Source: Escherichia coli
GTDB taxonomy: Bacteria > Pseudomonadota > Gammaproteobacteria > Enterobacterales > Enterobacteriaceae
Assembly (NCBI RefSeq): GCF_030013595.1
Contig: NZ_CP122770.1
DNA: 64,000 nucleotides
Reading direction: 5' to 3' (one strand)
In this document: positions 29,537 to 32,557 of the stretch, in pieces
Position numbering within the stretch: the stretch's first letter is position 1
How the letters are laid out: every line of letters starts with the position of its first letter
The notes under the pieces: model-generated
Told to the model about the DNA's origin: nothing
Seen by the model: the letters and a program-made list of their open reading frames with translations, nothing else
Databases searched by the model: none
Position numbers and translations under genes: made by a program

Positions 29537-29953
29537 TCAGTCATCTCCGAACATATTTTCAGCGTTTCTTCTGGTCTGGTCTTCACCGTCATTTCTCGAC
29601 AGACTCTGCTCTGTAAGAGGAGTACTGCAATCCACAGACGTATGGAGACCAGATTGTTTTTCCAGTAATTCAAGCAATTTCTTTTCAACCGAAAAAGCAC
29701 CTGGTATCACGCTGGAAATCACCTTATTAATATCATCCAGAGTCGTATTTTCTGTCAGTAACTCCGATATCAGCAAAGGAAGACGTTTATCTATAGCTGC
29801 AAACGCCGCACCAGTAACTAACATCGCGCGCATGAAACGTCCCCGCTCCTTCAGTTTTTCATTTGCAATGAGCTCATCTGCTATCTTATCTCCTGTCCGT
29901 TCATCCGGGAAAAGTTCAAATGAGCAGCGTCTGGATTTATTTTCATCACTCAT
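29537..29953 (-). CDS. parR: ParR/StbB-like adaptor of type II partition system
   Basis: 138 aa; LLISELLTENTTLDDINKVISSVIP resembles StbB; downstream of parM. Confidence 0.65.
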   Translation of the reverse strand: MSDENKSRRCSFELFPDERTGDKIADELIANEKLKERGRFMRAMLVTGAAFAAIDKRLPLLISELLTENTTLDDINKVISSVIPGAFSVEKKLLELLEKQSGLHTSVDCSTPLTEQSLSRNDGEDQTRRNAENMFGDD

Positions 29954-30925
29954 TAGTCACACCACCTTTCATTTTTATCATTCCCATGACTAAATCAAAC
30001 TGCGGGGATGAGCTCAGATAAAAGCGCTCATCAGGAACCTTAGTCAGGTTCTTCACAGCCTCGGCCACAATTTCAGCCCCACCACCAACACACATTACAT
30101 GTGTATAGTCGGTGAAACGGCTGATGACATCATTAACTCGTTTAATAAGCAACTTCTGCCGTTCATTGATAACATTAATGATAGACTCACGCTGTTCAGC
30201 ATTATAAATGCGACGGGAAAGGTAGTCAGGTTCATTACGGTGCACAATGATATTGTCAGCCTGGAATGAGCTCACTCTTGTATTAGCATGTACAGCCATC
30301 TGTTCCTTAACCCCGGATGTAATCAGGGACACGCCGATATTTGGATCACACCAGGTTTTTGTAATCCCTGTCATTTTGCTACGAACATGCGACACATCAA
30401 GAGTTGTACCACCGAGATCTACGATCAAAAGGGATTCATCATCCTCAAGCCCCGCAAGAACACTGAAACCAGCGGGAATACTTTCAGGAAGAACGGAAAC
30501 ACTGCGAATAACAAATGCATCACTCCCCTGCACCCGTACTTCACGCATCACATTTTTTTCTTTCTTTCAATGTTTTGCTTATTTTTCTGATTGTTGGCGT
30601 CAAGGTATTCAGAGATCGGCAATGTGACGATGACATCAACAGGCTGCGCTTTCAGGCCGGTCTGCTGTAGCGCATGCTGAATGGCCACAACATTCACATC
30701 ACTGTACTGATAGCGTGTTTCAGTCGTTACGACAGCATCAGCACTTAATGGATCAAATGAAAACTTCTCGCCGTCGATCTCGTAATTAGCCGGGGCAGCA
30801 TCATCCAGTAAACTAAAAGACCATTCCGGTTTAAAGCTGTTAGGGCTGATTAACGTTTTCACGTCACCATCCTCCAACCAGGCAAGTTTAATGTTGGTAG
30901 AACCATCATCAATAAAGATTTTCAT
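29946..30925 (-). pseudogene. parM: parM/stbA actin-like partition ATPase, split by frameshift at an A7 tract (~30551-30560)
   Basis: N-part [14 protein letters not shown]...NIERKKKM and C-part ...PESIPAG...GGTTLD...GGGAE both match ParM in different frames. Confidence 0.7.
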
Positions 30926-30994
30926 AACCAGTCTCCGTTGCTCATAAACAAATAGAAAAAACAAACATGCTTCATACATGCAATGTATATTCAA

Positions 30995-31330
30995 TTATAA
31001 TGAAAAAACGGTCTTTCTGAAAGGACAAATGCAACATAAAAACACGATAAATTGCATGTACATTGTACACACAACTTTAAGACCAGAGGAAATCATAGAT
31101 ACAAAAACATTATGAAGGTTATATGTGATACATAAATGCAATATAAAAACATCGTGGACATCATGGTTCAGGTTAGGGGAAAAGGAATGAAATGGTGAAA
31201 CTGAGAGGAAAGGAAAGCGGTGACGAATCATGTCACCATAAACAGAAAGATGTCTAATGGGGACTCTTTAGGTACGTGAAGAATCCCCATAACGCATTTA
31301 AAAGACACACATCAGATACCCTTAAGGTAT
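30995..31330. promoter_or_regulatory. Candidate parC-like centromere/promoter upstream of parM
   Basis: AT-rich; direct repeats aaatgcaa(c/t)ataaaaaca; palindrome gatacccttaaggtatc near 31303-31322. Confidence 0.4.
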
Positions 31331-31338
31331 CCGATAGT

Positions 31339-31647
31339 TTATTGACCTATTGCACCATCACGTTCAAGCTTCTCTCTTATAGCCTCAATAATATATGAGC
31401 TAAAATCCAGAGATGTTTTACTGGTCGCTTTAAGTTCCGCATGAGCTTCAAAATACGACAGCGGTATGGCCTTAAGATTCTTAGCCTTCGTCCTGGCAGC
31501 CACGGGACGACCTGAAACTTCCTCTGCACCTTCATTTGGCTGAGACGGGGCTGTTGCTGTTACGGCAGAAGAAGAAGTTTGTAATCTGGCAGAATCCACC
31601 AGGTTTTTCAGTTTTTCAGCCTGTGCACTAAATTTCGCTTTGCTCAT
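31339..31647 (-). CDS. parB: ParG/CopG-like ribbon-helix-helix centromere-binding protein
   Basis: 102 aa; unstructured N-terminus, C-terminal RHH-like LDFSSYIIEAIREKLERD; downstream of parA. Confidence 0.55.
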   Translation of the reverse strand: MSKAKFSAQAEKLKNLVDSARLQTSSSAVTATAPSQPNEGAEEVSGRPVAARTKAKNLKAIPLSYFEAHAELKATSKTSLDFSSYIIEAIREKLERDGAIGQ

Positions 31648-31733
31648 GAGATAACCCAGGATGTTTGTTAGATACTTAAAAGATATCCATTAAAAGCCCA
31701 AAGGATACTATATGGATACCCAATAGACACACC

Positions 31734-32378
31734 TTACTGTTTGTTATTTTCAATCAGATGATTGATTTCTTCGATCAGGGCAATAACTTCCTTACCTCCT
31801 GCCGAATAGCGCCCATGAACAGACTCAGTGATTCCCATCCCAGTCTCAATGACATCCTCAAATTCTGCACGAGCAGAAATGCGGCTCTTCATCAGCTTCA
31901 GATGTTTGAACGATGGCAGGATTGCATCAAGCTTAGGGAATTTCTTCTTGTTAGGATTAACTTTACAGAGATACAGGTGAGCAGTTATATCGGTCCCCAT
32001 GATAGAGCTGATTTCGTCCAGTACTCCATCAAAATGCATCAAACCAATACGTTCAGTCAGGGAGTCTTTTGAAGGGACAATAACGCAGTCTGCAAAGGCA
32101 ATCGCAGTACGGGTAAGATCTGAGTCAAATCCCCCACAGTCAATAAGTAACGTCTTATCGCTGTTCTTGTAGGGAGTCATAATTTCGATTAACTCATCCA
32201 CTGTTTTGGGTACTTTCACGGAAATTTCTTTTCCTTCAGGTCTCAGCCCCAGAATGATAGAAAGCCCGGTATGAGTATCCAGATCAACTGTATCAGACTT
32301 CATTTCACCAACAATGTTTACGGATGAAGTTGTCTTACCCACACCACCTTTGGGATGCGTATTAGCAATAACAGGCAT
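31734..32378 (-). CDS. parA: ParA-type Walker ATPase (small, type Ib partition)
   Basis: Walker A KGGVGKTT; ATG at 32378 with GGAGAT RBS. Confidence 0.8.
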   Translation of the reverse strand: MPVIANTHPKGGVGKTTSSVNIVGEMKSDTVDLDTHTGLSIILGLRPEGKEISVKVPKTVDELIEIMTPYKNSDKTLLIDCGGFDSDLTRTAIAFADCVIVPSKDSLTERIGLMHFDGVLDEISSIMGTDITAHLYLCKVNPNKKKFPKLDAILPSFKHLKLMKSRISARAEFEDVIETGMGITESVHGRYSAGGKEVIALIEEINHLIENNKQ

Positions 32379-32429
32379 AGTGTATCTCCAGAATCCACAT
32401 GTAATACCCATAAAGCCCCCATAAGACAC

Positions 32430-32538
32430 CTTTCGGATATCCAAGAGGTACTCAATAGATGTTTTTTTACTCTATACCGGTCCTGCATGTCAACAGAATA
32501 TGAAATACCGATAATATATCCATGAGATATCCGAAAGG
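32430..32538. promoter_or_regulatory. 13-bp perfect inverted repeats (cctttcggatatc / gatatccgaaagg) upstream of parA
   Basis: Direct reading; arms ~85 bp apart. Confidence 0.4.
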
Positions 32539-32557
32539 GATTTAAAAAAGTCAGAGC

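Follow-up and report, generated by a model that had tools for sequence, protein, structure and literature searches.

Positions 29537-32557 of the 64,000-nucleotide stretch of Escherichia coli DNA analysed here (the window) raise the question of how many plasmid segregation systems lie in this region, and which of its short repeats could serve as their centromeres. An earlier examination of the letters alone (the sequence-only reading) had placed two partition systems side by side, a type II parMR pair adjoining a small ParA with a small partner, and this arrangement was confirmed. The region is R64-type IncI1 backbone that encodes a ResD-like recombinase, ParA, a 102-aa protein, ParM and ParR and adjoins umuC/impB, with all genes of the par locus on the minus strand. 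More than 1000 PLSDB plasmids match the region at ~100% identity; its ParA, 102-aa, ParR and integrase proteins are the identical set found in R64, and the 102-aa protein matches 1335 PLSDB records. R64-type parAB genes are present in about half (48%) of 460 I-complex plasmids (PMC10286972). An Rfam search of positions 29000-34500 gave no match.

What is seen here is the usual stability region of IncI1 resistance plasmids of the R64 type, in which two segregation systems are adjacent. As a locus it is ordinary and of a known kind; the family of its centromere-binding protein and the anatomy of its centromere are undescribed, and the literature searched contained no experimental study of R64-type parAB and no description of its centromere or DNA-binding partner. 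Our preferred reading, to which we assign a probability of roughly 0.8, is that the region comprises two independent segregation modules of the R64-type IncI1 backbone, one resembling a type Ib ParABS system and the other a type II ParMRC system.

The parM-parR module and its frameshift

The parR (stbB) gene (29537..29953, read from 29953 to 29537) encodes a type II centromere-binding adaptor of 138 aa that matches Pfam PF10784 Plasmid_stab_B (E=7.6e-28). Its N-terminal 83 aa match pB171 ParR/StbB (PDB 2JD3, E=2e-6), and both its N-terminal ribbon-helix-helix (RHH) domain and the position of its gene downstream of parM are those of a type II adaptor. The parM gene for the actin-like ATPase (29946..30925, read from 30925 to 29946) matches StbA_N (E=2.3e-64) and ParM_N (E=9.1e-73) and is split into two ORFs. 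Relative to the reference sequences NZ_LN890525 and R64, a run of eight T residues is contracted to seven at 30553-30559 (A8 to A7 on the coding strand); the ORF, although clearly homologous to ParM, breaks off after 125 codons. The intact A8 allele encodes 326 aa, and the intact homologue aligns with R1 ParM structures at E ~1e-103.

If the A7 base call is true, only the ParA-based module is active, and the type II module could be a decaying remnant, redundant beside the ParA system. We regard this inactivation as a serious possibility, slightly less probable than an intact parM. The frameshift reported by the sequence-only reading is present in the sequence, and the A7 allele recurs in 33-34 of 1043 PLSDB records (~3%) from varied hosts, as well as in a diverged IncF copy. 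However, 20 of the 33 A7 records listed come from one sequencing project, and because of this concentration the frameshift may be an artefact of homopolymer sequencing. In the IncF copy (L014) a neighbouring G-run is also one base short compared with that of the allele L015, which resembles long-read homopolymer error. Moreover, R64, ColIb-P9 and ~97% of records carry A8, and parR and the region upstream of parM are intact.

That upstream region (30926..31153, minus strand) is a candidate parC that also holds the putative parM promoter. A strong promoter-like site, TTCAGA-16-TATAAT (31021-30994), lies between the repeats of this region. Two 23-nt direct repeats, at 31153-31131 and 31046-31024, agree at 94% over 18 nt at a distance of 107 bp, and a partial third copy occupies 31111-31094. 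The region also has T-rich sub-repeats of 11 bp (TTGCATTTAT / TGTTTTTAT type), with a lag-11 autocorrelation of z=2.5-2.8, but similar 11-mers (at most three mismatches) are no more numerous upstream of parM than in shuffles of this AT-rich stretch. One diverged locus (L006) carries clear 11-bp iterons at the equivalent site. The direct repeats pointed out earlier as centromere candidates are real, and their position and the analogy with known systems make them candidates for parC. One such system, R1 ParMRC, has a homologous ParM, a ParR of the same Pfam family and 11-bp-type repeats around the promoter; its iteron sequence differs from that of R64-type parMR, whose iteron definition is weak, and its parM lacks the frameshift of the copy described here. 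By this analogy, ParR would bind the repeats around the parM promoter, and ParM filaments would drive plasmid copies apart. A GC-rich hairpin, GGTGACATGATTCGTCACC, with a C/T tract after it (31219..31237, minus strand) resembles a terminator. It stands between the parAB unit and the promoter region of parM and is largely kept in the 80%-identity allele L014.

ParA, its partner and the phased iterons

The parA gene (31734..32378, read from 32378 to 31734) encodes a small Walker-type ATPase of 214 aa with matches to AAA_31, MipZ and CbiA and a deviant Walker A motif, KGGVGKTT, at residues 10-17. The protein aligns over its full length with NF041546 ParA_partition (E=1.6e-14, under the curated cutoff). 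It is a type Ib ParA in both size (~190-310 aa) and its want of an N-terminal DNA-binding domain. The putative parA promoter (32458..32493, minus strand) has a TTGACA -35 element at 32493-32488, which is kept at the equivalent place between arrays in two diverged loci (L006 and L007). An A-rich, -10-like TAAAAA follows ~18 nt downstream; this element is weak and failed a consensus scan.

Directly downstream of parA lies the gene (31339..31647, read from 31647 to 31339) for the 102-aa protein (R64 WP_000030199), a ParB-like candidate centromere-binding protein. The partner is small and unrelated to HTH/CTPase ParB proteins, and the gene order is kept in eight loci. A conserved N-terminal helix is followed by a variable disordered linker and then by a conserved C-terminal extended segment and two helices, a layout that matches ParG, omega and centromere-binding proteins of the pB171 ParB type (N-terminal peptide, linker, C-terminal extended-helix-helix). 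The earlier description as an RHH partner holds for a small partner but was not confirmed for the fold by sequence, profile or fold searches. No Pfam or NCBIfam model matched the ORF, and sequence and profile comparisons of the protein and its C-terminal domain with the PDB gave only chance matches (annexin, RAP and a tubulin-complex protein). At Pfam E<=10, the family matched no RHH family; DUF3950 alone recurred, weakly, in 15 of 59 members. A single-chain dimer engineered from the C-terminal domain, meant to force a beta-ribbon, was predicted at pLDDT 45 with no strand. An RHH fold is nonetheless plausible from a fitting secondary-structure pattern and weak in-register profile alignments.

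The GGATAC/GGTATC motifs noted earlier as candidate centromere sites resolve into approximately 22 iterons with an 11-bp phase and the consensus TGGATATCTTTTG, which on this pattern mark candidate centromere or operator sites. The iterons form three groups, the first of which consists of two arrays that flank the parA promoter. The promoter-distal array (32499..32538, minus strand) has units at 32521 and 32510 and a weak one at 32499, and the promoter-proximal array (32376..32454, minus strand) has units at 32442, 32431, 32420, 32409, 32398 and 32376, the last overlapping the parA ribosome-binding site (RBS) and ATG. The second group fills the gap between parA and the gene for the 102-aa protein (31645..31733, minus strand) with seven or eight units in 11-bp steps, the final one overlapping that gene's start codon. 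The third lies downstream of that gene (31247..31333), with minus-strand units at 31321, 31310, 31299 and 31277 and inverted plus-strand units at 31247 and 31258. The iteron has a quasi-palindromic core, which makes the orientation of its units partly ambiguous.

Several measures describe these arrays. A position weight matrix trained solely on diverged loci (Pectobacterium, Cedecea and metagenome relatives) found 34 matches in 31200-32560, where ~5.5 were expected; nowhere else in the 64 kb are matches so dense. Chains of at least three units in 11-bp steps occur four times, only at the par locus, and never in shuffles. The model-free lag-11 autocorrelation reaches z=5.2-5.6 upstream of parA and z=3.3 in the spacer and is marginal (z=1.8) downstream. 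GGATAYC occurs 28 times in the window against an expected 11.2 +/- 3.3, a count that none of 100 shuffles reached, and six of the 28 copies fall within 31326-32532. At the level of sequence, the locus thus shows the short-repeat arrays around the par promoter that are characteristic of type Ib systems. Replication iterons were rejected as an explanation, since the window has no adjacent rep gene and the arrays accompany parA in loci that lack rep.

The arrays are likely binding sites of the 102-aa protein. Dimers of this protein would bind the iterons cooperatively, and with one unit per helical turn the iterons would share one face of the double helix. The resulting partition complex could be linked by the conserved N-terminal peptide to nucleoid-bound ParA-ATP, perhaps with stimulation of ParA, and the same binding would also repress the parA promoter between its two arrays.

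An unlikely alternative is that the arrays are transcriptional operators only, with the 102-aa protein acting as an autorepressor or global regulator while partition is left to ParMR or to one array. The bracketed promoter and the unit over the RBS and ATG speak for such a regulator, and the RHH-type partition proteins omega and ParG are also repressors. Yet arrays also occur in the intergenic spacer and past the end of the operon, where they are not needed to repress the parA promoter, and no phased chains occur at other promoters in the 64 kb. Furthermore, a Walker ParA is always co-encoded, and family members without parMR (L008-L012) retain parA, its partner and the array layout.

The sequence-only reading had also proposed 13-bp inverted repeats upstream of parA as a centromere candidate. 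The repeat is exact (32429-32441 and 32526-32538, with 84 nt between the arms), and its coordinates differ by one base from the position that reading implied. Each arm overlaps the core of one iteron unit, one in the promoter-proximal and one in the promoter-distal array. The repeat is broken by uncompensated changes in 80-92% diverged alleles (L014 and L015) and is absent from L006 and L007, more distant loci that retain the arrays. As far as sequence comparison goes, the inverted repeat consists of two iteron units and is not conserved, and the functional unit would be the 11-bp iteron.

The adjacent gene (32558..33337, minus strand; 259 aa as annotated) encodes a ResD-like tyrosine recombinase with Phage_integrase and XerC/D-like matches. 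It probably serves multimer resolution as a neighbour of the par locus that lies outside it. That the inverted repeat and nearby repeats form a res/rfsF-like site for this recombinase rather than a centromere is very improbable and was rejected on allele comparison: the repeat abuts the recombinase stop codon and the recombinase-parA linkage persists in diverged plasmids, but the arms are 84 bp apart where a core site would have a 6-8 bp spacer, both coincide with phased iteron cores, the repeat is degraded in L014 and L015 and missing in L006 and L007 despite the recombinase in the latter two, the arrays of L006 stay with parA although a rep gene separates it from the recombinase, and identical repeats are found 700-1200 bp from the recombinase.

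Relatives, known systems and a possible new family

The reading of the arrays as sites for the 102-aa protein draws further on relatives of the locus. The 11-bp period is retained in the spacer and near the promoter in Pectobacterium, Cedecea, Yersinia, Klebsiella and Aeromonas relatives. All eight family loci examined have it in the spacer (z=3.2-6.2) and have repeats upstream of parA too; downstream, six of the eight reach z>=2, and the signal is absent in the Aeromonas locus L012. The repeat core differs in relatives where the predicted DNA-reading segment of the 102-aa protein differs. The core is GGATATC in the R64 type, TGTATNT in Yersinia, GGAWTCC in Klebsiella and TGTACA(T) in K. quasipneumoniae and Aeromonas, and the segment before helix 1 varies along with it (AKNLKAIP, PKTLRAIP, TKTLKAIP, AKNLQIP and QKRIPNLP).

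The design recalls the double par locus of pB171, which reportedly pairs par1 (ParMR) with par2 (ParAB) and has the sites parC1 and parC2 (Ebersbach & Gerdes 2001; Ringgaard et al. 2007). Our comparison used a pB171-type plasmid, CP091396. In both cases a type II and a type Ib system are adjacent, ParA has 214 aa, the partner is small and the ParR proteins are homologous (2JD3, E=2e-6). Both also have a ResD-like integrase nearby: the recombinase described here is 94% identical to the integrase beside ccdAB in the IncFIB pB171-type plasmid. However, the pB171 operons diverge around a shared parC1, whereas the R64-type operons are in tandem, and the R64-type repeats, GGATATC units phased at 11 bp with an extra intergenic array, are unlike those of pB171. 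The ParA proteins are only 19% identical (E=3e-4) and pB171 par2 ParB gave no alignment with the 102-aa protein, so membership in par2 was rejected despite the similar design. The pB171 locus is also referred to in PMC7602700.

The IncI plasmid pESBL carries a type Ib ParAB/parS system that was validated experimentally (Daniel et al. 2020, PMC7602700), whereas the R64-type system is known here from sequence. The two share a plasmid complex, a slot beside umuC/impB, a small ParA, a partner of ~100 aa without a recognisable motif and arrays on both sides. The pESBL locus lacks parMR, unlike the R64-type locus, and its parS consists of contiguous 8-bp GATAACAA repeats. No cluster of this octamer exists in the 64-kb window; therefore, the locus differs from the characterised IncI par. 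With ParA proteins 24% identical and unrelated partners, assignment to the pESBL type (Hp7-type ParB with GATAACAA arrays) was rejected as well.

More distant parallels come from pSM19035 delta/omega and TP228 ParF/ParG/parH, in which RHH proteins bind the centromere and the repeats double as operator and centromere. In their partner proteins a flexible tail at the N terminus precedes a small dimeric domain at the C terminus that binds DNA; these proteins act on short iterated repeats, and by analogy the R64-type system would be alike; pSM19035 also has arrays upstream of both genes, as found here. The 102-aa protein has no sequence or confirmed structural relationship to these partners, which bind contiguous 7-bp heptads or 4-bp-spaced tetramers rather than repeats with one unit per 11 bp.

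We see an even chance that the 102-aa protein founds an undescribed centromere-binding family, whose centromere would consist of iteron arrays with one unit per helical turn, including one between the ATPase and binding-protein genes. Its specificity variants (GGATATC, TGTATNT, GGAWTCC and TGTACA) would set the partition-incompatibility types of plasmids in the I complex, IncF, other enterobacterial groups and Aeromonas. The R64-type locus leaves the general view of plasmid partition as it was. Its iteron arrays and protein-tracking sequence would offer direct targets for incompatibility-based plasmid curing, and the natural protein/site specificity pairs could reveal how small centromere-binding proteins read DNA. 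In a set of 1.84 billion proteins, only 69 clusters at 50% identity match the 102-aa protein. It is often mislabelled 'molecular chaperone GroEL', and a corrected annotation can now take the place of 'GroEL' or 'hypothetical protein'.

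Gene content of the locus

All genes in 29537-33337 lie on the minus strand. In order of transcription, a tyrosine recombinase gene of the phage-integrase family (Pfam; 33337->32558) is followed by parA (32378->31734), which encodes a 214-aa ParA/MipZ-type ATPase with a weak Pfam match and the Walker A motif KGGVGKTT, and then by an ORF of 102 aa (31647->31339) whose product has no Pfam match. Beyond these lie parM (30925->29946; StbA_N, E=2.3e-64; ParM_N, E=9.1e-73) and parR/stbB (29953->29537; PF10784, E=7.6e-28), to which umuC/impB, ending at 29535, is convergent. Pfam matches and gene order thus bear out the sequence-only reading that two partition systems adjoin here, parA with the 102-aa gene beside parM-parR.

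More than 1000 PLSDB plasmids are ~100% identical to the stretch, and these are typed as IncI1 or IncI-gamma/K1, conjugative and MOBP/MPF_I. Identical ParA, 102-aa, ParR and integrase proteins occur in matching order in the archetype R64. These matches identify the locus as the standard stability region of IncI1 plasmids; it was spotted correctly, yet it is an ordinary backbone locus. Ahead of the recombinase gene (32558-33337) lies a small conserved ORF (33339-33752), and small ORFs resembling it are found ahead of the integrase in relatives from Pectobacterium (L006), Cedecea (L007) and a metagenome (L008).

The same reading described parM as frameshifted, and the contraction is indeed present in the sequence. 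The sole parM difference from NZ_LN890525 and R64 is T7 for T8 at 30553-30559 (A7 versus A8 on the coding strand), which truncates ParM after 125 codons and is the only homopolymer indel across the 11.7 kb that aligns to another comparison locus (L001). A8 is present in R64 and ColIb-P9, and of 1043 PLSDB records matched by a 90-bp probe, 33-34 have A7. However, the frameshift may be technical, since 20 of the 33 listed A7 records come from a single accession series (CP1225xx-CP1228xx, pig ETEC). Furthermore, a diverged IncF copy (L014) that also carries A7 in parM has G7 in a neighbouring G-run where a second diverged allele (L015) has G8, as homopolymer under-calling would predict. A technical artefact is rated somewhat more likely than a real loss.

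Iteron arrays around parA and the 102-aa gene

In gene orientation, the non-coding DNA around these two genes consists of 11-bp direct repeat units, GGATATCTCAT in form. A conserved TTGACA (32493-32488) is preceded by about three of them, and about seven more lie between the promoter and the parA ATG; a further seven to eight occupy the entire spacer that separates parA from the 102-aa gene, and about four, with two inverted units, lie downstream of the latter. Three independent tests back the 11-bp reading. Model-free autocorrelation at lag 11 reaches z=5.2 in the upstream DNA and 3.3 within the spacer. A weight matrix derived from diverged relatives alone, with the window excluded, yields 34 matches in 31200-32560 where ~5.5 are expected; these are spaced by 11-bp steps and form the densest part of the 64 kb. 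Finally, four phased chains of at least three units were found, all confined to the par locus, compared with none in 30 shuffles.

Both recurring GGATAC/GGTATC motifs and 13-bp inverted repeats upstream of parA had been proposed as candidate centromere sites. The motifs hold up as candidates: GGATAYC occurs 28 times in the window against 11.2 expected, and at this locus the motifs mark arrays of 11-bp-phased units. The inverted repeat exists as an exact pair (32429-32441 / 32526-32538), but it is not conserved: it carries two uncompensated changes in each of L014 and L015 and is absent from L006 and L007. It amounts to a pair of iteron units whose core is quasi-palindromic. The corrected anatomy is one of 11-bp-phased iterons in arrays that precede parA, separate it from the 102-aa gene and follow the latter, rather than an inverted repeat. 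An A-run at 32462-32468, in the spacer that leads from the parA -35 box to the proximal iterons, has seven residues in the window, L001 and L015 and six in R64 and L014, a length polymorphism inside the putative parA promoter that could change spacing.

The 102-aa protein family and its candidate sites

Homologues of the 102-aa protein are encoded in 1335 PLSDB records, with further ones in a large protein collection, and the family forms 69 clusters at 50% identity among 1.84 billion proteins. Near the N terminus, members share a conserved peptide (KLKxLVxSARLQTS in enterobacteria, with an A-x-L core family-wide), which a variable, indel-rich linker joins to 50 conserved C-terminal residues (KxKxLxxxPxxxFxxHxxLKxxGKTxLxFSxYIxEAxREKLERD). 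The protein (WP_000030199) and its relatives are widely labelled 'molecular chaperone GroEL' or 'chaperonin', evidently a propagated mis-annotation.

An AF2 monomer model places a helix at 3-19 and disorder at 26-46, followed by an extended stretch and helices at 63-74 and 80-96. This predicted extended-helix-helix order corresponds to the beta-alpha-alpha succession of RHH monomers, and an invariant G-K-T-S turn fits the G-x-S/T motif that N-caps helix B in RHH proteins, so that an RHH fold is plausible. By hhalign, the segment aligns in the expected register with Arc (E=0.016 and 0.041) and with the pB171-type ParB, which itself matches Pfam RHH_1 at E=0.12; none of these matches reaches significance.

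At all loci from L006 to L012 (the latter four from Yersinia, two Klebsiella and Aeromonas), parA is followed by the small gene. Every locus examined has the 11-bp period in the spacer (z=3.2-6.2) as well as recognisable repeats upstream of parA. The downstream lag-11 signal reaches z of at least 2 in six of eight loci, with z=1.8 in the window and none in Aeromonas. A GGRTAYC / GTATAC core is kept where the C-terminal domain is near-identical to that of R64 (L006; largely L007 and L008), and the core differs at loci with a different segment before helix 1: TGTATNT with PKTLRAIP in Yersinia, GGAWTCC with TKTLKAIP in Klebsiella, TGTACAT with AKNLQIP in K. quasipneumoniae and TGTACA with QKRIPNLP in Aeromonas. 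The comparisons place the protein in a small, unannotated family whose putative sites co-vary with it, and this covariation makes the strongest indirect case for the 102-aa protein as the reader of the iterons.

The parMR module and related partition cassettes

Intact ParM matches R1 ParM structures (E ~1e-103), and ParR matches pB171 ParR (2JD3; E=2e-6). A strong promoter-like site upstream of parM (TTCAGA-16-TATAAT, 31021-30994) is flanked by T-rich repeats. The direct repeats proposed here as a candidate centromere comprise two copies of 23 nt, 107 bp apart, and a third, partial one. Lag-11 z is 2.5-2.8; by simple count, similar 11-mers are no more frequent in this AT-rich stretch than in shuffled sequence. 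The Pectobacterium relative has clear 11-bp iterons of the TTGTTCTCATA type on both sides of its own promoter (z=4.2), which makes it reasonable to regard the region as a candidate parC of R1 type. A conserved hairpin (31219-31237) separates it from the ParB-type array, so the two systems have no visibly shared centromere, unlike those of pB171.

Double partition modules are known in pB171 and also in R27. The pB171-type plasmid L013 carries a classical double par locus, but its ParA is only 19% identical to that of the window and its ParB, an RHH_1 match, cannot be aligned with the 102-aa protein, whereas its ResD-like integrase after ccdAB (936-1745; IncFIB) is 94% identical to the window's recombinase.

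In the IncI plasmid pESBL (NC_018659), the corresponding slot beside umuC is occupied by a type Ib par locus that has been validated experimentally (PMC7602700). The ParA encoded there shows 24% identity to the window's, the ParB (Hp7) is unrelated to the 102-aa protein, parS consists of contiguous GATAACAA octamers rather than 11-bp units, and parMR is absent; it is a system distinct from the R64 type. 'parAB R64' was reported in 48% of 460 I-complex plasmids and treated as unrelated to the system tested there (PMC10286972); the discussion of that paper places R64 parAB in pESBL with 100% conservation. When pESBL 1-70 kb and R64 1-50 kb were compared, neither had the other's par type, and the pESBL par of Daniel et al. 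is not R64-type. Our literature search found neither centromere mapping for the R64 type nor a study of its ParB.

The IncI-complex slot beside umuC/impB holds unrelated cassettes, of R64 type (parAB, parMR, recombinase) or pESBL type (L004 995-2100), at a fixed backbone position, which looks like cassette exchange. Plasmids typed as IncF can carry the parAB-parMR block too, together with umuC in L014 (CP148558, IncFIA/FIB; 1346-5350) and downstream of ccdAB in L015 (E. albertii, IncFIB/FII/I1), with 80-92% non-coding identity to the window. The block is interrupted by a Rep3-type replication gene between recombinase and parA in Pectobacterium (L006 1870-2733) and, in Cedecea (L007 4605-6306), by umuDC, which separates the small partner gene from parM; the parAB / parMR pairing is kept in these diverged relatives despite the inserted genes.
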